In this document: in pieces, positions 14,794-34,124 of the stretch
Position numbering within the stretch: the first letter of the stretch is position 1
Layout of the letters: each line of letters starts with the position of its first letter
Notes under the pieces: generated by a model
Seen by the model: the letters and a program-made list of their open reading frames with translations, nothing else
Database searches by the model: none
What the model was told of the DNA's origin: nothing
DNA from: Candidatus Giovannonibacteria bacterium RIFCSPLOWO2_02_FULL_43_54
GTDB lineage: Bacteria > Patescibacteriota > Minisyncoccia > UBA11713 > 2-01-FULL-45-33
Length of the DNA stretch: 43,698 nt
Assembly: GCA_001778875.1 (NCBI GenBank)
Contig: MFIK01000010.1
Coordinates: 4,936 to 48,633 of the forward strand
Direction: 5' to 3'
Made by a program: the position numbers and the translations under genes

Positions 14794-15550
14794 TTTGGTC
14801 AACGTGGCAGGTTGACCATTTTGCGCCGACATATATAATAGAGTCTATGAACAAACAAACTTTTTTCGAAGGAGAGCAGCCATTATTTCACATATTTAAC
14901 AGGGGTGTTGAAAAAAGAGAGATTTTTTTAGACGACAACGACAGAAATAGATTTTTATTTTTACTTTGCGTCCTTCAAGGCGATATTTTTTTCAACCACT
15001 CGTCGAGACTGGCTAAGGAGTTTGGTCAACGTGGCAGGTTAGCCATAGAGGAAATTATCGGAGATATTATAGACGCTAAAGTTGTTGAGCTTGTAGGTTT
15101 TGTTCTTATGCCAAATCATTTTCATTTGATTGTTCAGGAATTGAAAGAAGGAGGTGTTACTAAATTTATGAGCCGGCTGTCTAATAGTTATACAAAGTAT
15201 TTCAATATCAAAAATGACCGTAAAGGTTATTTGTTTGGTAGCAGTTTTCATAAAAAATTGATTGATACAAATGAATACCTTTTGCATCTATCGGCATATA
15301 TTCATCGCAACCCCCGCGAAATAAAGAAATGGAACAATAAGGAGAGTGATTATCCTTGGTCCAGTTATCAAGATTATATTGGCGAAAACAGATGGGGCAG
15401 CCTGTTGAATCCGGAAATAATTTTAGATCAATTCTCCAACAAAAAAGAATATTTAGAATTTACCAGATCCAGTAGTGCAAAATTAAAAGAATTCGAATTG
15501 GCATTGGAATTTGACTAAAGTTAAATGATCAACCTGGCAGGTTGACCAAA
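14794..15550. repeat. Three REP-like palindromes associated with the RAYT gene
   Basis: TGGTCAAC-GTGGCAG-GTTGACCA at 14796-14818; variant inside the CDS at 15023-15045; variant at 15526-15548, with TTTGGTCAAC on the minus strand. Confidence 0.85.
14847..15518 (+). mobile_element. REP-associated tyrosine (HUH/Y1) transposase, RAYT-like
   Basis: HIFNRG, VLMPNHFHL (HUH), YTKYFN, YIHRNP and YPWSSY motifs; flanked by REP palindromes. Confidence 0.9.
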
Positions 15551-26342: not shown

Positions 26343-27638
26343 ATGAATTTTTTTAAAAAAATAGTCACTTCAACATTGGTGATGCTGGCAAAAAGGGCAA
26401 TCGGGCGATTCAGGCCTAAAATAATCGGCATCACAGGCTCCGTTGGCAAATCGTCCGCCAAAGAAGCGATTGCGGTTGTGTTGGGAAGCAGATATGACGT
26501 GCGAAAAAGCCAGAAAAGCTATAATAGCGAGATAGGCCTTGCGATGGCGGTTTTGGGTTTGAGTACGGCATGGAGGAGCTCCGTCGGCTGGCTCAAAAAT
26601 ATTATACTTGGATTTCAAGTCGCATACGGCCCGCTTTGTTGGCTCAAAACGGGCAAAACATTTTCAAAAATCTTAATACTTGAAATGGGAGTAGATAGGC
26701 CTAATGATTTTGATAAATTACTGAAAATAGTAAAACCAGACATCGGAGTTGTGACGGCCATCGGACAAATTCCCGTCCACGTTGAATTTTTCTCGGGGTC
26801 GGAAGCGGTGGCTAAAGAAAAATCGAAACTGATAAAAAGTCTCTCGTCGGATGGCACCGCGATATTGAATTTCGACGACGAAGTAGTTTGGGAAATGCAC
26901 GAAAGAACCAAGGCTAAAGTCTTTTCTTTCGGATTTGGGAGTGGCGGGGACATGCGGGCATCAAATTATAAAATAGATCTCACCGGGATTAATTTTAAAT
27001 TGAAAAAAGACGGTGCGTCGGTTCCTGTACGTTTAAATAAAGTATATGGAAAACAGCATGTTTACGCAGCAATGGCCGGGGCCTCGGTCGGATTGGCATT
27101 TGGCATGAATCTAATAGAAATTTCCGAAGCTCTCCAAAAATATTCTGCTCCTCCTGGAAGGCTGAAATTGATCGAGGGAATAAAAAACAGCTGGGTATTG
27201 GACGATTCATACAATGCCTCGCCTTTAGCAGCTCATGCGGCGCTCGACGTGCTCGGCGATCTCCAAACAAATGGAAGAAAGATAGTAGTTTTCGGCGATA
27301 TGCTGGAAATTGGCAAATATACAATAGAAGCCCATAAAACGCTCGGTCAGCTCTCTGCAAAATACGCCGATCATATCGTTACCGTTGGCCCGCGCTCAAA
27401 ATTTACGGCGGAAGGCGCAATCTCTTCCGGCACGCCAAAAGAAAACGTAAAAAGTTTTTCGACATCGGATGAAGCAGCGCCATACATTAAGGAATTAATA
27501 AAAAAAAGCGACTTGATCTTAGTAAAGGGTTCGCAGGGCATGCGCATGGAAAAAGTGGTTTTGGAAATTATGGCGCATCCGGAAGACGCGGAGAAACTGT
27601 TGGTGAGGCAGGATGAATATTGGAGAGATAAAAAATAG
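26343..27638 (+). CDS. murF: UDP-N-acetylmuramoyl-tripeptide--D-Ala-D-Ala ligase
   Basis: ITGSVGKSS, SYNSEIG, LEMG, DDSYNASP, GDMLEIG and LVKGS motifs. Confidence 0.93.
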   Translation: MNFFKKIVTSTLVMLAKRAIGRFRPKIIGITGSVGKSSAKEAIAVVLGSRYDVRKSQKSYNSEIGLAMAVLGLSTAWRSSVGWLKNIILGFQVAYGPLCWLKTGKTFSKILILEMGVDRPNDFDKLLKIVKPDIGVVTAIGQIPVHVEFFSGSEAVAKEKSKLIKSLSSDGTAILNFDDEVVWEMHERTKAKVFSFGFGSGGDMRASNYKIDLTGINFKLKKDGASVPVRLNKVYGKQHVYAAMAGASVGLAFGMNLIEISEALQKYSAPPGRLKLIEGIKNSWVLDDSYNASPLAAHAALDVLGDLQTNGRKIVVFGDMLEIGKYTIEAHKTLGQLSAKYADHIVTVGPRSKFTAEGAISSGTPKENVKSFSTSDEAAPYIKELIKKSDLILVKGSQGMRMEKVVLEIMAHPEDAEKLLVRQDEYWRDKK

Positions 27639-27656
27639 GTGTATAATAGACAATAT

Positions 27657-28421
27657 ATGTTAGACGAACTCAAAAAGATCGGGTTGTCGGAGAACGAGGC
27701 GGAAGTATATATTGCGCTTCTTGAATTGGGTTCTGCCACGGCGCAGGAGATTGCCGCAAAGTCCGGCATAAAGCGGACAACCATCTATGTGCAAATTGAA
27801 GCCCTCCTGAAAATTGGGCTCGTTTCGTCTTTTGAAAAAGAGATGAGTAAGGGGAAAGTCCCGAAAACGTATTTCAGGGCGGAGGATCCGGAAAATCTTA
27901 AACGCGTTGTCGAAAAAGAAAAATCAACCACACAGGAAAAGGAAGACTCTCTCAAAAAAACTCTCCCTGATCTGGAAAGGCTTTTCCTTTCTTCGGGTGA
28001 GCGTCCGCGCGTAAGATTCTTTGAGGGTGTGGAAGGACTTAATGCTATGCAGGATGAATTTTTGAAAACTAAAGATAATTTGGTAGAGACTATTTCTTCA
28101 TTAGACGACGTTTTAAGAATTTTTCCTCAACATCCGGAAAAAAATACGCCTAGACGCATAAAAAGGCATATTGCCTCCAAACTTATCTATACATCTTCAC
28201 GAGGACCATTTCTTGAAAAAGAAAATAAAGAAATGCTGCGCGAAACACGTTATTTCCCGCCGGATAAATTTCATTTTTCCTGCGATATTGCTATTTACGG
28301 GAATATTGTCGCAATTTCCTCGTTACGAGGAGAACCGTTCGGGATAATTATAGAAAGTGAGCAGATTGCGAATTCCATGCGATCAATGTTTTATCTTGCC
28401 TGGAAAGGTGCGGATAAATAA
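27657..28421 (+). CDS. TrmB-family transcriptional regulator (winged helix plus effector-binding domain)
   Basis: IGLSENEAEVYIALLELG, IAAKSGIKRTTIY, PRVRFFEGVEG and C-terminal IAIYGNIVAI...IANSMRSMFYLAW; TATAAT just upstream of ATG 27657. Confidence 0.88.
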   Translation: MLDELKKIGLSENEAEVYIALLELGSATAQEIAAKSGIKRTTIYVQIEALLKIGLVSSFEKEMSKGKVPKTYFRAEDPENLKRVVEKEKSTTQEKEDSLKKTLPDLERLFLSSGERPRVRFFEGVEGLNAMQDEFLKTKDNLVETISSLDDVLRIFPQHPEKNTPRRIKRHIASKLIYTSSRGPFLEKENKEMLRETRYFPPDKFHFSCDIAIYGNIVAISSLRGEPFGIIIESEQIANSMRSMFYLAWKGADK

Positions 28422-28436
28422 ATTAAATAAAAATTC

Positions 28437-28468
28437 AGCCGTACTGGGGTACCAGTACGGCTTTTTTT
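28437..28468. terminator. Intrinsic terminator after trmB, possibly bidirectional
   Basis: AGCCGTACTGG-GGTA-CCAGTACGGCT followed by a T run, with A-rich sequence upstream. Confidence 0.85.
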
Positions 28469-28596
28469 GATCAGGTATTCTGCCCGATCAAACGCAAAAC
28501 AGTAATTTATGCTTTTTTGCAAAACACATCTTTACACATCCTTTTGTTAGATCGGTTGCCAATAGCGACCAAAAAAAACAAGACAACAAACAAGTC

Positions 28597-28728
28597 TCAA
28601 TCCGCAATTTTTATAGTCCGTGCATTTCGCATCACTTCCTTTCCTCCTTGTGATGCCGCTTTGCGTTCGAGTGTACCCCCCAAGCATAGCGACCAAGCCG
28701 CTAAGAGGGGAAAGTTGATATTTTCCAT
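28597..28728 (-). CDS. 43-aa small ORF convergent on trmB (not in the ORF track)
   Basis: MENINFPLLAAWSLCLGGTLERKAASQGGKEVMRNARTIKIAD; SD GAGGAGG upstream; has its own promoter. Confidence 0.5.
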   Translation of the reverse strand: MENINFPLLAAWSLCLGGTLERKAASQGGKEVMRNARTIKIAD

Positions 28729-28771
28729 TTACCCTCCTCACGGCAAGTTGTTGAATTTACATTCTGTTGTA

Positions 28772-28800
28772 AGTCTAGCATATCTAATTTTAAAAGTCAA
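28772..28800 (-). promoter_or_regulatory. Sigma70-type promoter with extended -10 (minus strand)
   Basis: TTGACT, 17 bp, TAGACT, with the TGn extension (TGcTAGACT). Confidence 0.7.
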
Positions 28801-28871
28801 TAGGTGTCATCTGATTACAAAACATTTCAAAATGCAAAATAATGGCTTTAAATAAGAGCTTTTTTGCTAAA

Positions 28872-28889
28872 ATGACATATTTATGTCAT
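28872..28889. promoter_or_regulatory. Palindromic operator candidate
   Basis: ATGACATA-TT-TATGTCAT, ending 6 bp before the -35 of the + strand promoter. Confidence 0.6.
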
Positions 28890-28895
28890 AGGTAC

Positions 28896-28924
28896 TTGAC
28901 AAGAATTCAAAACGGGAGTATACT
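28896..28924 (+). promoter_or_regulatory. Near-consensus sigma70 promoter driving the ORF/structured-RNA array
   Basis: TTGACA (28896-28901), 17 bp, TATACT (28919-28924). Confidence 0.85.
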
Positions 28925-29160
28925 GACAAAAGTTAAGTCTTAACAATTTGTCAGTAGCCAAACGGTTGGCGGAACTTTTCTAGGCAGGGCATCGATCTTT
29001 AATAAAAAACAATTTGATCGCCCCTGAACCACTTTAGAGGTTTTAGGCTAATCACAAGGTTATTGATACATGGGTAGGGTCTCCTGAGGAGACCAGAAGT
29101 CAGATTAGACATGGGTGTCTGACTTCCGGTCTCCTCAAAATTTAAAAAAATAGGAGGCCT

Positions 29161-29253
29161 ATGATTCGAGTCGGTAACCGGATCCTCTGGGTCGGCAAGG
29201 ACGGATTGCTCTATAGCACCCGCACCGCCGCCCTTGAGTCCTTCAAGGACTGA
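29161..29253 (+). CDS. 30-aa small ORF (not in the ORF track)
   Basis: MIRVGNRILWVGKDGLLYSTRTAALESFKD; AGGAGG at 29152-29157, only 3 nt before the ATG. Confidence 0.5.
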   Translation: MIRVGNRILWVGKDGLLYSTRTAALESFKD

Positions 29254-29258
29254 CAAAT

Positions 29259-29470
29259 GAGGGTCAAGTGGGAGACCTGCCTGCCGGCAGGCAGGAAAAT
29301 CCCGGAGCCGGTAAGTCGGCTTGGCAACAGAACCCCCCGCGAACGGGGAAACTTGATGGAAAGTCAAAGTACCTTCTTCTCCGGTTCAAACCCGGACTTC
29401 CATCAAAGTTCTAACATTCCAACATTCTGCAGAATATAAGAATGTTACGGAATGAGGATTTTGATGGGAG
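29259..29470 (+). ncRNA. Structured module 1, ending in conserved hairpin copy 1 (29397-29470)
   Basis: Nested stems GAGGGT/ACCTTC and CAAGT/ACTTG enclose several hairpins, then TCCGG/CCGGA and CTTCCATCAAAG/TTTTGATGGGAG. Confidence 0.55.
29276..29295. repeat. Perfect 20-bp palindrome CCTGCCTGCCGGCAGGCAGG (REP-like)
   Basis: Seen directly; a degenerate copy lies inside nrtR at 8546-8566. Confidence 0.8.
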
Positions 29471-29512
29471 TAAAAATTCCCAAAGTTGAAAAACAATATG
29501 ACAGGCTCCGTG

Positions 29513-29741
29513 GTGAGACGGCGTCCCGTGCCTGCGAAAGCGGGGCGGTGGGCTTGGAGGGGATCGTAAGCCCCCGTAAGCCAGTCTATGACTATCCCAG
29601 GAGAAAGGTACGCTTAACCCCTCCGAAGGCGGTCTGCAGACTGCCATCTCACTCCGGTTAAAAATTTAACCGGCTTCCATCAAAGTTTATTTTATTTAGC
29701 AATCGGATTGCTAAGTGGCAAAAAGTAAATTTTGATGGGAG
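29513..29741 (+). ncRNA. Structured module 2, ending in conserved hairpin copy 2 (29674-29741)
   Basis: Closing stem GTGAGA/TCTCAC, a GAAA-tetraloop hairpin, GGAGGGG/CCCCTCC, then CCGGTTA/TAACCGG and the conserved hairpin. Confidence 0.55.
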
Positions 29742-29824
29742 CGTAAAAATGAGAACATTCACGCTCCAAGGAGTAAAAGGATAGTTCTTTTTAAAAAATA
29801 GTTCAGAAAAATTTGGAGGACGAG

Positions 29825-30040
29825 ATGAACCAATGGTTTCGTTATTTTCTTGGAACTCCGCAAAGATTTTTGCGGACGTTCGTGGTAGTTGGTCTGATTG
29901 TCGTGATTTTAAACCCCGGCCTACTTGCGTTGGCAGTAAACCGTTTTCTTGGAGAGATGAACCCGCTTATCGGGCCTCTTCTGCAAATCGGAATTGTTGT
30001 CGCCGGCATTAGAATAATACTCTTCGGCCGGAAAAAATGA
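29825..30040 (+). CDS. Small membrane protein, hypothetical
   Basis: SD GGAGG at 29815-29819; two hydrophobic segments and a basic C-terminus. Confidence 0.75.
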   Translation: MNQWFRYFLGTPQRFLRTFVVVGLIVVILNPGLLALAVNRFLGEMNPLIGPLLQIGIVVAGIRIILFGRKK

Positions 30041-30119
30041 AAAACGGGCCAGTGGTTTAGACAAAGGGAGTAACAATGCATGGCGCCTTTCGCCATATCC
30101 GAAACCAAGAGGAGGTACC

Positions 30120-30470
30120 ATGGAAGTATTTCTTTACCGTTCGGACGATGAAGAAGGCGCAAGCAACGGCGGCGGTTTTACCAGGCTCCTGTGCGTGGAT
30201 CGGAAGGTCCACGTTACACACAGCGGAAGCTGGTACGACCAGACCGGTTGCGAGTACGACGCCTTTGATTCAGAAAACTGGGAAGTAACCGGGCCATGCG
30301 ACGGCAGTTGTACCCCAAAAGGGTTTCTAACTGTCGAAGCAGTGGATCTGGTCAACCGATTCTTAAGTTCCGATGGCAAGGATTTGCACGGGTGGTCGAA
30401 AACCACTAAGCGCTATCCTGATGCCAAGCGGAACGAAGATCGGACACCCAGGAGACTGAATCGCTGGTAG
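30120..30470 (+). CDS. Hypothetical protein
   Basis: SD GAGGAGG upstream; 116 aa; no recognised family. Confidence 0.7.
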   Translation: MEVFLYRSDDEEGASNGGGFTRLLCVDRKVHVTHSGSWYDQTGCEYDAFDSENWEVTGPCDGSCTPKGFLTVEAVDLVNRFLSSDGKDLHGWSKTTKRYPDAKRNEDRTPRRLNRW

Positions 30471-30693
30471 TCCTAACCGTTTACACAAACGTAATGTGCC
30501 GTGGGGTTAAGGCAAAGATAACCCACGTTAAAGGGCGTCCGGCTCATATAGAGCCTTAAGCTGCCCTGACCTAAACTCGGTTTAGGTCAAAAGTGCCGAG
30601 GATCTAGCAACGGAAGTCATAGCGCTTCCGGCTTCCATCAAAGCTTCTCTTCTCTAATTCGCGCGAATAGGAGAATAGAGATTTTGATGGGAG
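30468..30693 (+). ncRNA. Structured module 3, ending in conserved hairpin copy 3 (30632-30693)
   Basis: Four successive hairpins (e.g. TGACCTAAAC/GTTTAGGTCA), then CGGAAG/CTTCCG and the conserved hairpin. Confidence 0.55.
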
Positions 30694-30751
30694 TAATGGA
30701 TAGCTCTTTGTTTAAAATATATAGTCAAAAACAGAAAAGGAGAAAACTAAA

Positions 30752-30943
30752 ATGAAATGTCCGGATTGCGATGAAGAAATGGATAGAGAAGACGGTGCGA
30801 GCATTAAGGGTGCACCAAACTGCATTTATTCGTGTGAAGAGTGCGGGAGCGAATTCGTGTGGACGAAAGGCGTGAAAGGATTGAGGCGGATTGCTGAGGG
30901 AGTCCCGAACTCCGCGGCAATTTTGAACAGAAACCATTTCTGA
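30752..30943 (+). CDS. Small zinc-ribbon protein
   Basis: CPDC and CEEC pairs; SD AAGGAG upstream. Confidence 0.75.
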   Translation: MKCPDCDEEMDREDGASIKGAPNCIYSCEECGSEFVWTKGVKGLRRIAEGVPNSAAILNRNHF

Positions 30944-30962
30944 AGAAAAGGGAGGCAAGCTA

Positions 30963-31580
30963 ATGAGCGAAAAGTGCGGCTGGGAGCTTGAAACTCTCAG
31001 CGAACTTTGCTCGCTCTGGCGAAGCGGTGCACATGGATATTCGCTGGAGTTCCTCGCGGATACCATTTGCACCAACCTTGCGCGGCAACGCAGATTCGGC
31101 GGAGACGAAGTTGGCGTGAAAGTTGCTTTAGAGCTTCTTTCCTCAGATCTAAGTCTTGCCGAATCGGCGCTTGAAGATATTCTTGCAAAAGAATTATTCA
31201 AAGCCGTACTGGGCTTCGTTAAGAAGATCCGGCGAAACGGACTTGAGCGGTATGATGATTGCGATAAGTTGTATGATGTCGCGAGCGAGGGCAACCACCT
31301 TCTATGTGACTACGACTCATTTCATCTGCTACTCAAGACATTGTCGGATGCTTCACTTCCGCAATCGGGGCGCGAGAAGCTCGCAAAAGAAAAAGCGTGG
31401 TTTTCGTTAACCACACGGCTTCTTGAGCGGTACTTCTATGTGTTCTGGTCTGCGTCGCTCATGGCGGACGGTTATTGCCGACACTGGAAAGTTGAAAGCA
31501 ATAATCCGCTCTCGCTCATGAAGCACATCGTGGAACTTCCGGAAGGAACAAGTTATGAAGAGTTTAAACGCTCTCTGTAA
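30963..31580 (+). CDS. Hypothetical, probably alpha-helical protein
   Basis: SD GGGAGG upstream; 205 aa; no recognised family. Confidence 0.7.
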   Translation: MSEKCGWELETLSELCSLWRSGAHGYSLEFLADTICTNLARQRRFGGDEVGVKVALELLSSDLSLAESALEDILAKELFKAVLGFVKKIRRNGLERYDDCDKLYDVASEGNHLLCDYDSFHLLLKTLSDASLPQSGREKLAKEKAWFSLTTRLLERYFYVFWSASLMADGYCRHWKVESNNPLSLMKHIVELPEGTSYEEFKRSL

Positions 31581-31624
31581 TTTTTTCTTTTTGAGGTTTA
31601 GGGAGTACGAAGTGAACCGGAGAA

Positions 31625-31914
31625 GCAACGCGCAGAATCCCCCGCCTGACTGCGCGGAAAGTTGCCTTGCTCCGTTTGAGACGGAGAGCTCCGACTAGCG
31701 TCGGGAGTTTGCAACACACCAAGCTATAAAAGTTAGAGGCTGAAAGCTATCCCGTTGCAACTGGCGCCCTGCCTAAAAACAGGGCTGGTGATAAATTAAG
31801 GGGAAAAGATTTGCGGAGGATAGGATAAAAAAATCTTATCCCCCTTCCATCAAAGTTTTTATAAAATTATCTACTATGATATATCATGGTACTTTATGAA
31901 AATTTTGACGGGAG
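31625..31914 (+). ncRNA. Structured module 4, ending in conserved hairpin copy 4 (31844-31914)
   Basis: Stems GCAAC/GTTGC, GCGCAG/CTGCGC, CTCCGT/ACGGAG, TTGCAAC/GTTGCAA and GCCCTG/CAGGGC, then GGATAGGAT/ATCTTATCC and the conserved hairpin. Confidence 0.55.
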
Positions 31915-31955
31915 TACCGGAGGAAATTAAATAAAAATATACTAAAAAAGACTTT

Positions 31956-32312
31956 CTAAGCCCGTTTATCGATAGCGGCTTGGAGCTTTTCTTTCCATGT
32001 ATTTTGAGAATGGATTATCCTTTCGGCGCCCAAAGCCATAAGTTCTTTTTTTGTTTTTGCTTTTTCCGCGATGGGCTTCCAATATTTATTTAAAATTACC
32101 TCGCTTTCCGCTTTTGTAAATCGTGACGAAGGCGGTTTTTCAAAAACTTTTTCATCCACTTCGATCGGCTCCGACAAATCAACAACAAACGCGGCGTTGC
32201 CTTTGCGCTCATTTTCCAAAGCAATCGCTTTAGGGAAAACTGTTCCTCTATATCCATTGAACCCTTCGATTTCATTAACAAAACTGAACAAAGATTTTGG
32301 CTGATTTTCCAT
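31956..32312 (-). CDS. Hypothetical protein
   Basis: 118-aa ORF with protein-like composition, convergent on the array. Confidence 0.65.
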   Translation of the reverse strand: MENQPKSLFSFVNEIEGFNGYRGTVFPKAIALENERKGNAAFVVDLSEPIEVDEKVFEKPPSSRFTKAESEVILNKYWKPIAEKAKTKKELMALGAERIIHSQNTWKEKLQAAIDKRA

Positions 32313-32425
32313 GAACGGGAACCTTTCCGGATCAGGTAAGCTAGGCTTACTCTCTGGGCCGCTTCCATATTATAAATATTAACTTAATTTGGAATTTTTA
32401 GCAAATACTGCTATATTTTTCTGAT

Positions 32426-32526
32426 GCTCCTGTCGTCCCCGCCTGCAACGCTATGCCAACCCGTATCGCTACGCGAAGCGTTGCTGGCGGGCGTAGCATT
32501 GCGGGCAAGTAGTCTGGTTAGTCACG
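32426..32526 (+). pseudogene. 5' remnant of a tRNA gene interrupted by a 72-bp palindrome
   Basis: Removing 32438-32509 gives GCTCCTGTCGTCTAGTCTGGTTAGTCAC, similar to the 5' half of the adjacent tRNA-Glu; no T-arm is seen. Confidence 0.55.
32438..32509. repeat. 72-bp nested palindromic element, copy 1
   Basis: Differs at 3 positions from the copy in cysS (41337-41408). Confidence 0.9.
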
Positions 32527-32549
32527 ATTTTCTTGAAATTTTAATCCAC

Positions 32550-32624
32550 GGCCTCATCGTCTAGTCTGGTCTAGGACACACGGTTCTCATCCGTGGAACT
32601 CGGGTTCAAATCCCGATGAGGCCA
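32550..32624 (+). tRNA. tRNA-Glu (anticodon CTC)
   Basis: Acceptor GGCCTCA/TGAGGCC, anticodon arm CACGG-TTCTCAT-CCGTG, T-arm TCGGG-TTCAAAT-CCCGA; CCA is not encoded. Confidence 0.95.
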
Positions 32625-32691
32625 TATTTATAGAATGCATTTGATAAATCCAGGCGCGGGAGCTAAGGATAGGTCAGATACAGGTATTTGA

Positions 32692-33018
32692 ATGTTGCGA
32701 AAAGTTTTCTTTGATGTGGCTACGGATTTGATCAAACTTTACTTATTTTTTACCGGTCCATGGCGGCGAGCAAAGTTTTATACAGCATGGAATTTCTATC
32801 AACAGGATGATGTGTACCGCGAGCGACTGAGGGCTTTGGGCTTTAAATTTGCCGTCAGCGCTTTTTTGGACAGCAAGGCGAATCAAAAATATTGTCTAAA
32901 GATGGAGCTCCTGCGGCACCCCGAACTGAAATGGCGGATAATCTTTCTGCCGTGGACGATTGAGCGACCCGATATTTTCGACATTGCCACAAATTCCGGA
33001 ATTACTTCATACAGCTAA
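32692..33018 (+). CDS. Hypothetical protein
   Basis: 108-aa ORF followed directly by a terminator. Confidence 0.55.
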   Translation: MLRKVFFDVATDLIKLYLFFTGPWRRAKFYTAWNFYQQDDVYRERLRALGFKFAVSAFLDSKANQKYCLKMELLRHPELKWRIIFLPWTIERPDIFDIATNSGITSYS

Positions 33019-33046
33019 AAAGCCCATCTGCAGTGGGGCTTTTTTA
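33016..33046. terminator. Bidirectional-type intrinsic terminator
   Basis: TAAAAAGCCC...GGGCTTTTTTA. Confidence 0.75.
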
Positions 33047-33074
33047 TTTAAATAAAAATGTTAAACTTAACATA

Positions 33075-34124
33075 ATGATGCTCTACATTATCTTAGCTTT
33101 GGCGGGAGGAATAGCGGTTGGTGCCATAATATTTTATTTTTTGGGAAAAAGAGGCGGACAAGATGAAGGCGGCGAAAAAGAATCGCAGGCGTTTTTGATG
33201 CTACAAAACCAGATAAATGAACTGCACCGCGCGGTGGATCAGAAAATGGGGGAGTCGACGAAAATAATGCAGCATCAGTTCGGCGAATCATCAAAACTTG
33301 TCCGCGACGTGACGGAACGTTTAACGAAATTGGACGAAACCAACCGCCAAGTTATAGGGTTTACCGACCAGCTGCAAAACCTGCAGGATATTTTGAAAAA
33401 CCCGAAACAAAGGGGTATTTTGGGTGAATATTATCTGGAAACCCTTTTAAAAAATGTTCTACCTCCGGGGAGCTATCAGATGCAGTATCCTTTCAAGGAC
33501 GGGACAATAGTGGACGCGGTTGTATTCGTTAAAGAAAAAATAATCCCAATAGATTCAAAATTTTCCATAGAAAACTATAACCGTCTCGTTGAAGAACGGG
33601 ACTCTAATGAAAAAGAAAGGCTGGAAAAATTATTCAAACAGGATTTAAAAAACAGGATAGATGAGACCGCAAAATACGTTAAACCCGAAGAAGGGACACT
33701 CGATTTTGCTTTTATGTTTATCCCGCACGAAGCGATTTACTACGATTTGCTCGTGGCACAGGTCGGTGCGGTGAAAGTGAATACGCGCGACCTTATTGAA
33801 TACGCTTTCAAAGAAAGGCACGTTATTATCGTCTCACCTACCTCATTTTTGGCTTATTTGCAGACTGTTTTGCAAGGATTAAAGGCGCTGCAAATCGAGG
33901 AATCTGCCAAAGAAATAAGACAGCGCGTGGAAGAATTGGGCAGGCATCTTATGAGCTACGAAGATTTTATGAATAAGATCGGTAAAAATTTAGGAACGAC
34001 TGTTTCCGCCTACAACAGCGCGTCAAAGGAATTCAAAAAAATAGATAAAGATGTCATGCGGATAACCGGAAAAGGGATTGAATCTGACCTCGGTCTGCTT
34101 GAAAAACCGGAGGAAACGGAGTAA
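33075..34124 (+). CDS. rmuC: DNA recombination protein RmuC
   Basis: N-terminal transmembrane helix, coiled coil, and PKQRGILGE, IPIDSKF, TLDFAFMFIP and VSPT motifs. Confidence 0.92.
   Translation: MMLYIILALAGGIAVGAIIFYFLGKRGGQDEGGEKESQAFLMLQNQINELHRAVDQKMGESTKIMQHQFGESSKLVRDVTERLTKLDETNRQVIGFTDQLQNLQDILKNPKQRGILGEYYLETLLKNVLPPGSYQMQYPFKDGTIVDAVVFVKEKIIPIDSKFSIENYNRLVEERDSNEKERLEKLFKQDLKNRIDETAKYVKPEEGTLDFAFMFIPHEAIYYDLLVAQVGAVKVNTRDLIEYAFKERHVIIVSPTSFLAYLQTVLQGLKALQIEESAKEIRQRVEELGRHLMSYEDFMNKIGKNLGTTVSAYNSASKEFKKIDKDVMRITGKGIESDLGLLEKPEETE

Follow-up and report, generated by a model that had tools for sequence, protein, structure and literature searches.

A conserved two-hairpin element on the coding strand separates small genes in CPR bacteria

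In a 43,698-nucleotide stretch of the genome of Candidatus Giovannonibacteria bacterium RIFCSPLOWO2_02_FULL_43_54 (hereafter the window), we found a conserved two-hairpin signal on the coding strand that separates small genes and matches no described RNA family or recombination site. The element sets a variable G+C-rich hairpin directly against a long hairpin whose base, CUUCCAUCAAAG / UUUUGAUGGGAG, is conserved, together with two G·U pairs in it, U3·G and G12·U. The four hairpins of the window are members of this wider, previously undescribed element. Here we document its structure, strand, position and conservation, its link to a regulator and promoter, and its modular variation between relatives, and we weigh what it may do.

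Four copies in a single array

An initial reading of the window, made from the sequence alone (the sequence-only reading), had placed four related hairpins on the + strand, and their coordinates, strand and arms were confirmed (Table 1). All four copies carry the arms CTTCCATCAAAG (5′) and ATTTTGAYGGGAG (3′). In the whole 740,563-base genome, a gapped two-arm pattern matched four forward and no reverse sites; the same pattern read backwards, which served as a control, matched none in either orientation. A genome-wide check for scattered copies placed all four within this one array locus. Folded as RNA with the short upstream hairpin, copies 1–4 reached −42.8, −41.8, −38.6 and −36.1 kcal/mol, energies that none of 200 shuffles attained in any of the four cases (z scores in Table 1), whereas the opposite strand, folded as DNA, gave much worse energies of −20, −18.6, −14.2 and −10.7 kcal/mol. 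Folding also bore out finer points of the sequence-only reading: a short hairpin precedes each long one at a distance of 0–2 nt, the interiors show no sequence kinship among copies yet lengthen the stem in each, the conserved base holds two wobble pairs, and copy 4 has one A·C mismatch. Copy 2 corresponds to the 42-nt form of G002 (L013, 4155–4196) with an additional inner stem-loop. This form, with a 19-bp stem, is the minimal one, and the window copies are longer; lengths range from 41 to 93 nt, with every copy on one strand within its array. The interior type of copy 3 was found in at least five distinct flanking contexts, and copy 4 is the final element of the array.

Table 1 Features of the array and its surroundings (window positions; handles such as G003 and L206 are ours for other genomes and loci)
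Feature	Positions	Strand	Basis or remark
Y1 (HUH) transposase-like gene	14847–15518		Within the window; one of 5 in genome
TrmB/TrmBL2-like winged-helix regulator gene, 260 aa	27639–28421	+	Pfam PF01978, E=6e-18
Bidirectional intrinsic terminator after regulator gene	28437–28462		11-bp stem and T run; both strands scored
Divergent short ORF, 43 aa	28597–28728	−	ORF list; reverse-strand promoter 28772–28800
Palindrome ATGACATATTTATGTCAT	28872–28889		Sequence; just upstream of −35 hexamer
Array promoter TTGACA-17-TATACT	28896–28924	+	11/12 in promoter scan
Structured leader	28931–29160	+	Fold z −3.6 and −5.7
ORF, 30 aa	29161–29253	+	AGGAGG ribosome-binding site; conserved in G003
Short hairpin 1	29381–29396	+	Abuts long hairpin 1
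Long hairpin copy 1, 74 nt	29397–29470	+	z −7.6; covariance model R1 39.4 bits
G+C-rich spacer, no convincing ORF	29471–29654	+	Fold z −0.05
Short hairpin 2	29655–29672	+	RNA fold
Long hairpin copy 2, 68 nt	29674–29741	+	z −9.5; R1 54 bits
GTTCTTT junction motif	29784–29790	+	5′ of next ribosome-binding site
ORF, 71 aa, hydrophobic	29825–30040	+	Missing at this place in close relative L206
Small 5′-UTR hairpin ATGGCGCCTTTCGCCAT	30080–30096	+	Recurs before several cargo genes of relatives
ORF, 116 aa, no family	30120–30470	+	Kept in G002, L206 and L128
Short hairpin 3	30612–30629	+	RNA fold
Long hairpin copy 3, 62 nt	30632–30693	+	Interior type AATTCGCGCGAAT; z −5.4
ORF, 63 aa, zinc-ribbon-like (four Cys)	30752–30943	+	ORF list
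ORF, 205 aa, orphan	30963–31580	+	Family and protein searches
Short hairpin 4	31818–31841	+	RNA fold
Long hairpin copy 4, 71 nt	31844–31914	+	One A·C mismatch; z −6.5; R1 52.6 bits
tRNA-Glu(CUC)	32550–32624	+	Just past array end

The conserved helix and its strand

Covariation, which the sequence-only reading had proposed as a check, supports the helix, and its structure is under selection. In a seed of 19 sequences (15 distinct rows), 94.7% of cells were paired and both sides had changed at 7 pairs. Neither the covariation score nor the percentage paired was equalled in any of 500 shuffles, and the count of pairs changed on both sides was equalled in 1 of 500; sliding the 3′ partner by 1–3 columns left just 42–62% of cells paired. 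Among 76 distinct hairpins, 16 basal positions were paired in 51–76, with U3·G present in 55 and G12·U in 68. Compensatory types were seen at position 7 (UA in 70, CG in 5), position 10 (AU in 66, GC in 6), position 15 (UA in 51, CG in 18, AU in 4) and position 16 (UA in 53, AU in 11, CG in 5, GC in 2). The basal helix has no conserved bulged base. The arms are identical between the window and a locus titled Saccharibacteria, where the neighbouring regulators are 37% identical, which points to a sequence constraint beyond common descent.

On the gene strand we counted 236 G·U pairs against 18 A·C 1×1 mismatches, compared with 31 against 62 on the other strand, and the fold was more stable on the gene strand for 77 of 80 hairpins. 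The selected fold is that of the sense-strand single strand, not of duplex DNA. The preference for a fold of the transcribed strand, first suggested by the G·U pairs of the window copies, was upheld by an excess of such pairs on the sense strand only and by the poor folding of the opposite strand.

Regulator, promoter and cargo

In at least 12 loci the array is preceded by a TrmBL2-like regulator gene, and homologues of the window's regulator precede the hairpins on the same strand in 6 array loci and in further genomes of the same family. The best PDB relatives of this regulator are TrmB and TrmBL2, and its Atlas clusters are 91–100% TrmB. On the + strand, the promoter that follows the gene is the array's sole strong sigma-70-like site, and the same promoter follows the regulator gene in all six loci that we read. 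No + strand terminator-like site was found between 28925 and 31950; by this arrangement, a single 11/12 promoter and no internal + strand terminator, the array is predicted to be one transcription unit. The palindrome ATGACATATTTATGTCAT is a putative operator of the TrmB-like regulator, and other loci have comparable TGTCA..TGACA repeats at the −35 hexamer. Within the leader we found a long hairpin (29086–29135) and an outer helix (29077–29085 with 29152–29160) that covers the ribosome-binding site of the first ORF; the leader motifs AGTTAAGyC and GGGTAGGG are common to relatives. The reverse-strand promoter of the divergent ORF scored 9/12 with TG in the promoter scan. The N-terminus of this ORF is kept in two relatives, where it is shortened to 16–17 codons, as judged by eye in an alignment of four same-genus loci.

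The units of the array include long untranslated stretches and units without an ORF, and the G+C content of the array reaches 0.45–0.575 in 200-nt windows, against 0.435 for the genome. The 205-aa ORF belongs to no Pfam, NCBIfam or PHROG family and retrieved three proteins at E ≤ 0.001 among 5.8 billion, itself included. No recognised immunity family was found among the cargo genes.

Junctions between units

The hairpins are always placed after a stop codon and ahead of the ribosome-binding site that follows, and they are co-oriented with the ORFs: across 11 arrays, 72 ORFs led by a Shine–Dalgarno sequence share the strand of the hairpins, against 17 that do not. A short hairpin (stem of at least 6 bp, gap of at most 3 nt) abuts 62 of 74 copies, compared with 11.7% of control positions. 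Exact GTTCTTT follows 37 of the 74 copies, at a distance of 0 or 10–19 nt in 35 of them and 27 nt in two, and frequently touches the Shine–Dalgarno sequence of the next gene. The motif has a strand bias of 57:5 inside arrays and is not a general gene-start motif in the studied genome. Of 73 copies, 25 can also form an alternative 3′ helix with 4 bp or more, compared with 3.8% of shuffled flanks, and this helix covaries (GGGAC/GUCCC, GGGGA/UCCCC and GGGAA/UUCCC).

The sequence-only reading had further described multibranch structures of 120–190 nt in the spacers. This held for three of five stretches (29254–29396, 30471–30612 and 31740–31843, with z of −3.0, −2.5 and −2.2), whereas 29495–29640 (z −0.05) and 31600–31745 (z +0.14) folded no better than shuffles. 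These less structured spacers, the 42-nt form, the GUUCUUU motif and the TrmB-like regulator with its single promoter had not been part of that reading.

Spread across CPR genomes and turnover between relatives

A covariance-model search revealed same-strand arrays of 3–8 copies in many CPR genomes with several class names, in records titled Saccharibacteria, Zambryskibacteria, Ryanbacteria, Sungiibacteriota, Giovannonibacteria, Paceibacterota and Minisyncoccia. Five other array genomes surveyed with the model gave 3–11 matches each, some places matching on both strands, and copies were confined to one contig in three of these five, as in the studied genome. No true viral member was found among IMG/VR viral contigs. 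In the window, the tRNA-Glu alone reached an Rfam gathering threshold, and at E ≤ 5 nothing of weight fell on the hairpins (best mir-4773, 25.7 bits against 100). The earlier idea that the system is modular and repeated, and without a match among known families, was strengthened by the Rfam search and by the search of other genomes.

Comparison of relatives, a check that the sequence-only reading had proposed, showed that cargo differs even between close ones. Close relatives are approximately 91% identical over window positions 30074–31869, yet carry differing units on either side, with breakpoints at hairpins or at AGTTCTTT. G003 lacks a counterpart of segment 29381–29671, which comprises short hairpin 1, hairpin 1, the spacer and short hairpin 2 (comparison with L111). 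Relatives retain their shared units in the same order (ORF98 before ORF116; ORF116, ORF63, ORF205), which looks like descent with insertions and deletions and less like free shuffling. Single copies also occur between ordinary genes, such as Nramp and ORFs that we named by eye from their translations as methyltransferase-like and ABC-transporter-like.

Possible functions of the element

Our leading interpretation, which we hold tentatively, is that the double hairpin punctuates a long polycistronic transcript as an element of the sense-strand RNA, with a part in processing, 3′-end protection or the control of translation. The single strong promoter would be under the TrmBL2-like regulator, and RNA polymerase starting there would transcribe the leader and every unit. 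Where a unit ends, the short G+C-rich hairpin would stack on the long hairpin in the RNA, and a conserved factor would recognise the base of the long hairpin, including U3·G and G12·U. The module may then provide a stable 3′ end for each upstream segment, mark an endonucleolytic cut near the single-stranded GUUCUUU and set ribosome access to the following gene. This last role is suggested because CUUCC in the base resembles an anti-Shine–Dalgarno sequence and GGGAG a Shine–Dalgarno sequence; the small alternative 3′ helix competes for GGGAN in one third of copies. Covariation has no bearing on this role, as both partners hardly vary. Units would be lost, gained and swapped at the hairpins because each bears the same 12–13-nt arms, and exchange at these points would make the array hypervariable.

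Among the options raised by the sequence-only reading, RNA processing sites fit best: co-orientation, sense-strand G·U pairs and placement between stop codon and ribosome-binding site all favour them, with cleavage itself a predicted step. Like the RNase III hairpins of the T7 early transcript, the hairpins span about two helical turns and lie between the cistrons of what is predicted to be one long transcript, and the 19-bp minimal stem, set between stop codon and ribosome-binding site, is of T7-type size (about 20 bp or more). T7 hairpins remain as stable structures at the 3′ ends of upstream messages, and we propose that the same may happen here. At T7 sites the cut falls at an internal loop and the sequences have little in common; here, by comparison, the 12–13-bp base hardly varies among distant hosts, a second hairpin sits next to it and the element belongs to a chromosome rather than to a phage. 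A gene for RNase III, a candidate host nuclease, is present in all five other array genomes and was not found in the studied genome, which is 96% complete. As far as is known, RNase III needs less than twelve invariant or near-invariant base pairs. A gene for RNase Y adjoins the regulator in L048, and the matching ORF of L087 is cut by the locus end. A general processing signal would be expected genome-wide, and in the studied genome and three of the five others all copies are on one contig, so a putative array-specific reader must be assumed. Turnover at the hairpins, swapped interiors and ORF-less units are equally expected from a cassette system that acts on DNA.

Such a system, in which the sense-strand single-stranded DNA hairpin and GTTCTTT form the recombination site of an integron-like array, is somewhat unlikely. 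A putative recombinase would insert, excise and shuffle small-ORF or non-coding units, whose cargo would be expressed from the upstream promoter. As in integron cassette arrays with attC sites, chromosomal ones and integrase-less CALIN clusters included, a promoter heads co-directional, mostly orphan units (4 here, 3–8 in other loci). Each unit closes with an inverted repeat that is imperfect and variable in length and that has a conserved base and a free top; the repeats stay within the array, and the cargo differs between relatives. The breakpoints at hairpins or AGTTCTTT, the recurrence of one hairpin type in at least five flanking contexts, the confinement to one contig in most genomes surveyed and the raised G+C content of the array are also consistent with cassettes, as are large serine recombinases near hairpins in three loci and tRNA genes at four array ends. 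Yet no recombinase is consistently adjacent, and the constant neighbour, in the place of an integrase, is the winged-helix regulator. The window contains no integrase or reverse transcriptase, as had been noted; the genome's single tyrosine recombinase, its single large serine recombinase and its three reverse transcriptases are all encoded on other contigs. The tyrosine recombinase, on contig C14 rather than on C10, scored 85 bits against the integron-integrase model TIGR02249, whose cut-off is 265. Neither attC core, R″ RYYYAAC or R′ GTTRRRY, was found on either strand of the arms, and GTTCTTT is not part of the helix and carries pyrimidines at the RRR positions of the attC core. attC sites fold on the bottom strand and are marked by extrahelical bases, whereas here the sense strand is selected, no bulged base is conserved and GUUCUUU is tied to the next ribosome-binding site. 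The kept order of shared units and the single copies between ordinary genes also count against a cassette site. Cassette recombination sites, another option of the sequence-only reading, thus retain the architecture and the comparison with relatives in their favour, but lack a linked recombinase and failed the attC-core and integrase tests. We also considered the rAID-1 clusters of Bacteroidales, which are defined by a 5′ XerD-like recombinase and low-G+C cargo and are described as reminiscent of integrons: their small genes change fast, run co-directionally in long arrays and are separated by repetitive intergenic sequences (bioRxiv 10.1101/471110). The array of the window shares this general layout. 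Its 5′ gene is TrmB-like, however, its cargo exceeds the genome in G+C content, no immunity family was recognised in it and the genome's only tyrosine recombinase is encoded elsewhere, on another contig; we did not assign the array to rAID-1.

An unlikely, though broader, possibility is a cassette platform of CPR's own without an integrase, in which a TrmBL2-like repressor and one promoter serve small-ORF and structured-RNA units delimited by the double hairpin and GUUCUUU, and in which the same element cuts, caps and gates in RNA and is an exchange site in DNA. Exchange would then take place within and between lineages, through an enzyme or through short-homology recombination.

That the element is a selfish miniature insertion element, a MITE- or PATE-like unit of about 100 nt that targets GTTCTTT and has no host function, we consider improbable. 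One hairpin type does occur with unrelated flanks on both sides, some copies have GTTCTTT on both sides in a manner resembling target duplication, and the genome encodes five Y1 (HUH) transposase-like genes. Against this, GTTCTTT lies within 60 nt ahead of the hairpin in just 7 of 74 copies, the Y1 gene of the window has a hairpin of its own at its flanks that differs from the element (GGTCAAC..GTTGACC), and Y1 genes were not found in two of the five array genomes. Copy number is low and copies are mostly clustered; the arms are conserved across hosts whose regulators are 37% identical, and their positions covary, which implies selection on structure. REP/BIME sequences with their RAYT (Y1) partner are likewise short, co-transcribed intergenic hairpins that can stabilise upstream mRNA and act as recombination junctions, but REPs are dispersed and numerous, in contrast to four copies in one locus. 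With no dispersed copies in the studied genome and with different hairpins flanking the Y1 gene, assignment to REP/BIME or to an IS200/IS605-derived PATE was rejected.

Still more doubtful is a signal acting on transcription, whether a put-like antiterminator, a pause or attenuator, or a Rho shield, through which a long, partly untranslated operon would be read through or graded. The two stems abut and would act in cis on the nascent transcript as in HK022 put, units contain long untranslated stretches and no canonical terminator lies inside the array. But put occurs once behind each of two promoters, whereas this element follows every unit, including the last, and there are no terminators to overcome and no U-tract after either hairpin; the link with GUUCUUU and with the ribosome-binding site suggests a post-transcriptional role. 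The put-like antiterminator proposed by the sequence-only reading therefore fits poorly. Finally, we give very little credence to the arms being half-sites in duplex DNA for the neighbouring TrmB-like dimer: regulator and hairpins co-occur and ATCA/TGAT in the arms recalls what we take to be TrmB-family half-sites, but the arms are 18–69 nt apart in the copies compared, the interior is itself selected to pair, two conserved positions differ between the arms such that G·U is retained on one strand only, and a separate perfect palindrome lies at the promoter.

Implications for CPR biology

The ultra-small CPR bacteria (Patescibacteria) make up a large share of bacterial diversity, and to our knowledge very few regulatory RNAs or mobile platforms are known from them. 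The element described here can be searched for by a covariance model, a junction motif and a partner regulator with its promoter, and it marks a hypervariable locus of orphan small genes in records whose titles name several candidate phyla or groups. If it is an RNA signal, it would be a new, strongly conserved recognition helix for a protein or nuclease, with two invariant wobble pairs, and an entry to mRNA processing in organisms that can hardly be cultured. If it is a DNA site, it would define a cassette system without a known recombinase. A platform of CPR's own would amount to a hypervariable, regulated store of small effectors in cell-attached organisms. Either way, as RNA signal or DNA site, the arrays are a natural place to seek the small proteins and RNAs that these episymbionts may use on hosts, rivals and phages.

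Four hairpins in one putative transcription unit

We found all four long hairpins of the sequence-only reading in place on the + strand, each with CTTCCATCAAAG as its 5' arm and ATTTTGAYGGGAG as its 3' arm. Across the whole 740,563-base genome the two-arm pattern gave four forward and no reverse matches, a backward-read control pattern gave none, and a covariance model found no additional copies. Folded as RNA, a long hairpin together with its short neighbour reached -36 to -43 kcal/mol (z -5.4 to -9.5), an energy that none of 200 shuffles matched for any pair; the opposite strand folded much more weakly. These folds bore out the description of interiors that are unrelated yet extend each stem, and of a short hairpin just upstream (gap 0-2 nt). 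The multibranch structures proposed between ORF and hairpin stood up only in part (z -3.0, -0.05, -2.5, +0.14 and -2.2). A search for sequencing runs that contain 28800-32400 listed 20 DNA runs and no RNA run. Contigs from DNA runs over 27000-33500, in four partially covering datasets, are low-depth fragments of the same organism; the joints listed in them have sides of at most 44 letters (at most 34 in five of seven), and the read-depth peaks above hairpins 1 and 3 derive from contigs of other organisms.

On the 3' side of the regulator gene a bidirectional terminator comes first, then a short ORF with its reverse-strand promoter, next a palindrome and finally the array promoter. Because this strong promoter stands alone and no + strand terminator-like site was found from it to the last hairpin, the array appears, by sequence, to be a single transcription unit consisting of a structured leader (folds with z -3.6 and -5.7) and four units. 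In the predicted leader fold, an outer helix pairing GGGUCUCCU with AGGAGGCCU would cover the ribosome-binding site that serves the first ORF (start codon ATG, 29161). In 200-nt windows the G+C content of the array rises to 0.575, against 0.435 for the genome overall. The cargo consists of ORFs of 30, 71, 116, 63 and 205 amino acids, each with a ribosome-binding site. Searches of Pfam, NCBIfam and named PHROGs returned no family for them, and the only match among the array ORFs tried was a weak PHROG of unknown function for ORF63; for the 205-amino-acid protein, a search of 5.8 billion proteins yielded two relatives.

The divergent ORF between regulator and array promoter encodes 43 amino acids in the window and 16-17 in L206, a close relative, and in G003, a genome of the same genus; its N terminus, MEN(H)INFPLLAAW, is kept in L206. 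In loci titled Saccharibacteria its place is taken by reverse-strand sequence of about 400 nt that is conserved and non-coding. Considered as a structured RNA, the reverse-strand interval between regulator and promoter gave a weak consensus fold (-6.5 kcal/mol) in an alignment of four same-genus loci. Several cargo genes that are unrelated to one another have a second small conserved hairpin, (A/G)TGGCGCCTTTCGCCAT, 15-25 nt 5' of their ribosome-binding sites. We also observed a family of very basic ORFs of 43-57 amino acids (motif PLPRQTGG..KG..Y.R) directly 3' of hairpins in the arrays of distantly related CPR lineages; the array in the window has no member of it, and the family's 43-47-amino-acid members have eight homologues, all without a name.

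Positions of features in the window and, where a locus is named (L followed by a number), in other genomes or metagenomes
Feature	Position	Strand	Remarks
murF	26343-27638		left flank of the region
TrmB-like winged-helix gene	27639-28421		left flank, beside murF
Short divergent ORF	28597-28728	-	strong ribosome-binding site
Divergent promoter	28772-28800	-	
Array promoter, TTGACA-17-TATACT	28896-28924	+	score 11/12; sole strong + strand promoter in the region
Predicted leader fold	29077-29160		
Long hairpin 1	29397-29470	+	arm match
Long hairpin 2	29674-29741	+	arm match
Long hairpin 3	30632-30693	+	arm match
Long hairpin 4	31844-31914	+	arm match
tRNA-Glu	32550-32624		right flank
rmuC			right flank, with tRNA-Glu
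Small hairpin (A/G)TGGCGCCTTTCGCCAT	30080-30096; L013 ~3027, ~4417; L206 ~3651; L128 ~385		
Basic ORF family	L013 4271-4402; L087 6422-6559; L128 1087-1260		
Basic ORF family	L048 1468-1608, 2284-2424; L051 30-173	-	
Y1 (HUH) transposase-like gene	14847-15518		motifs HFH, YIHRNP
Small hairpins GGTCAACnTGGCAGGTTGACC	14799-14820, 15528-15549, 15025-15046		two flanking the Y1 gene, third inside it
Large serine recombinases	L077 4928-6634, 6791-7915; L079 1907-3448; L098 3843-5645		
Last array unit with tRNA-His(GUG)	L206 5480-5712		
Palindromes ACCCCCACACCAAA..TTTGGTGTGGGGGT	L121 5727-5756; L119 8661-8710		downstream of TrmB orthologues (genomes G005, G017)

Anatomy of the element and selection on one strand

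Comparison of 74-80 copies revealed a common anatomy. Immediately 5' of the long hairpin, at a gap of 0-3 nt, lies a short G+C-rich one whose sequence varies; 62 of 74 copies have such a neighbour with a stem of 6 bp or more, as against 11.7% of 1,480 control positions. In the long hairpin, 12-13 conserved pairs form the base beneath a free top, and its length ranges from a minimal 42 nt (19 bp and a tetraloop) to 93 nt. For its last five bases, GGGAN, a UCCC-type word lying 5-8 nt further downstream offers another pairing partner; this alternative helix is possible in 25 of 73 copies but in 3.8% of shuffled flanks, and it covaries (GGGAC/GUCCC, GGGGA/UCCCC, GGGAA/UUCCC). Half of the copies (37 of 74) are followed by an exact GTTCTTT, 35 of these at a spacing of 0 or 10-19 nt. 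The motif often touches the GGAG box of the next gene, and over 46 kb of arrays its strand bias is 57:5. We rejected it as a general 5'-untranslated-region motif, as it is not tied to gene starts in this genome: 6.1% of its 244 genomic copies precede an ORF led by a Shine-Dalgarno sequence, versus 2.5-5.5% for five control words. As a target-site duplication it is a weak candidate, preceding the hairpin in only 7 of 74 copies.

Covariation supported the helix. In the seed alignment 94.7% of cells were paired and seven pairs had changed on both sides; of 500 shuffles, none reached its covariation score or percentage paired and one reached the count of double changes. Sliding the 3' partner by 1-3 columns reduced pairing to 42-62%. 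The basal positions carry many compensatory pair types across 76 distinct hairpins, and the arms have changed together 3' of TrmB orthologues in other genera, for example in AUCCCACCAAAG..UUUUGGUGGGAG and UCUCUUUCAGAG..UUUCUGAAAGGGA. The two strands also differ strongly. On the gene strand we counted 236 G.U pairs and 18 A.C mismatches, compared with 31 and 62 on the other strand, and the gene-strand fold was the more stable in 77 of 80 hairpins. Of the 76 hairpins, 55 keep the basal wobble pair U3.G and 68 keep G12.U. This asymmetry, together with the conserved wobbles, rules out recognition of symmetrical duplex DNA. Selection acts on one strand, running with the genes, as RNA or as sense-strand DNA. 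A crude test of neighbouring gene strands for the 74 copies, based on the largest ORF of at least 70 amino acids on each side, gave same/same 21, same/opposite 16, opposite/same 13 and opposite/opposite 10; because G+C-rich DNA yields spurious antisense ORFs, we replaced it with one using ORFs led by a Shine-Dalgarno sequence.

Arrays recur in CPR bacteria with a TrmB-like regulator

A search for the two arms, in which each prokaryote species was represented by a single genome, gave 56 loci, about 22 of which are CPR records (titled Saccharibacteria, Zambryskibacteria, Ryanbacteria, Sungiibacteriota, Giovannonibacteria, Paceibacterota or Minisyncoccia, or untitled bins). The CPR matches carry a 42-nt perfect hairpin, identical letter for letter in several. 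Matches elsewhere (for example in Nostoc, Bacteroides and Poribacteria) were single and folded poorly, and we treated them as chance. R1, a covariance model of the long hairpin built from 19 of the CPR copies, detected further same-strand arrays: six copies within 3.5 kb in L048, six in L087 (eight on the whole contig), five in L062, and four each in L079, L051 and genome G002. A metagenome scan added others. In three of five other genomes surveyed the copies are confined to one contig; the remaining two have scattered single copies between ordinary genes. Matches occur in nine of 20 genomes of the window's family, this one included, in five of 41 of a class sample, with weaker scores, and, under stricter filters, in one of 151 of a phylum sample, namely this genome. 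No true member of the element was found in IMG/VR. A loose two-arm pattern gave 32 single matches there, but each either folded poorly or stayed at or below 28.9 bits, in contrast to array copies, most of which score 30-67.5; we rejected these matches as chance, and with them a viral origin. The perfect palindromes ACCCCCACACCAAA..TTTGGTGTGGGGGT may represent a strongly diverged hairpin base; R1 gives them only 11-12 bits. Divergent arms were seen in G005, G017 and G032.

Six independently found array loci have, upstream on the same strand, a gene for a TrmB-like protein of 246-260 amino acids, and such a gene also precedes hairpins in G003, G007, G009, G010, G011 and G018, all of the window's family. 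The closest solved relatives of its product are TrmB and TrmBL2. All six loci are built alike: the regulator and a terminator are followed by about 400 nt containing a reverse promoter, then by AT-rich DNA in which a palindrome sits at the -35 element, by TTGACA-17-TATAMT and by a G+C-rich leader. Between the window and a Saccharibacteria-titled locus the regulators are 37% identical and the hairpin arms are the same. Selection therefore maintains the arm sequence, beyond any effect of recent spread or of concerted evolution. G003 has several TrmB-like paralogues on small contigs (C44, C73, C74, C75 and C82), three of which also carry a hairpin copy, and this suggests that a genome may have more than one regulator-plus-array locus.

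Units turn over between relatives, and no linked recombinase was found

The sequence-only reading had proposed comparing relatives for gain, loss or shuffling of units. Three relatives, L206, G003 and L128, were informative. L206 is about 91% identical to the window across 30074-31869, but has a different first unit, lacks the 71-amino-acid ORF, carries an additional unit (a 98-amino-acid ORF and a hairpin) 3' of hairpin 2, has other interiors in hairpins 3 and 4 within conserved flanks, and ends in an additional unit carrying tRNA-His. Some breakpoints coincide with AGTTCTTT. G003 is without 29381-29671, that is, hairpin 1 and an ORF-less spacer, and L128 shares the 116-amino-acid ORF (95% identity) but continues with another neighbour. 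Interiors of the hairpin 3 type turn up between at least five different sets of flanks. ORF-less units exist, and the order of shared units is kept between relatives. About 130 nt 5' of the tRNA-His of L206 end in a T-arm-like and acceptor-like sequence that ARAGORN does not call.

As the sequence-only reading had noted for integrases in the window, no recombinase linked to the array was found in this genome: its lone tyrosine and large serine recombinases lie on other contigs, and with the integron-integrase model, whose cut-off is 265 bits, the former scores 85. Large serine recombinases (XisF/Ccr-like) stand within a few kilobases of hairpin copies in three CPR loci, in one of which (L079) the gene adjoins a cluster of five tRNA genes. 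Five Y1 (HUH) transposase-like genes are present. The one in the window, with its near-identical small hairpins GGTCAACnTGGCAGGTTGACC, is a REP/RAYT-like pair; we rejected Y1 transposases as the acting enzyme, since this one is flanked by a different hairpin of its own and Y1 genes were not found in two of five array genomes. Neither Pfam model found RNase III in this 96%-complete genome; the enzyme is present in all five other array genomes and in a same-genus genome. In L048 a gene next to the regulator encodes RNase Y; the matching ORF of L087 is cut by the locus end. Three reverse transcriptases of 279-338 amino acids are encoded on contigs C6, C9 and C31 of this genome.

A candidate RNA signal between units

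Tentatively, and at somewhat less than even confidence, we favour the element being an RNA signal that punctuates the units of a long transcript, closing each unit and preparing the next. This reading draws on the wobble pairs of the sense strand, on the position of the element, strictly after a stop codon and before the next ribosome-binding site, where the junction motif lies, on the single regulated promoter, and on a competing 3' helix made of words resembling Shine-Dalgarno and anti-Shine-Dalgarno sequences. Cleavage, protection and translational gating are activities that the element might then have. A cassette mechanism acting on DNA, which we consider rather unlikely, would fit the confinement of copies to arrays, the near-invariant hairpin base and the turnover of units. 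It is compatible with the RNA signal, because repeated arms would promote exchange either way. A selfish miniature element, which we regard as improbable, a transcription-level signal, if anything more so, and a duplex operator, very improbable indeed, fit less well.

Among known systems, integron cassette arrays and the rAID-1 clusters of Bacteroidales (10.1101/471110) are closest in architecture, and the intercistronic hairpins of the T7 early transcript are closest in working principle. The hairpin array belongs to none of them. Of the defining features, those amenable to testing (core sites and an integrase, the folded strand, dispersed copies, a cognate transposase) all came out negative. 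The absence of core sites agrees with the earlier description of an attC-like architecture without attC core sequences, and an Rfam search found nothing similar, consistent with its failure to match a known family. We rate the hairpin array as a structured-repeat-delimited gene array for which the literature outside subscription journals yielded no published description of the element. It is possibly a cassette platform of a new type.
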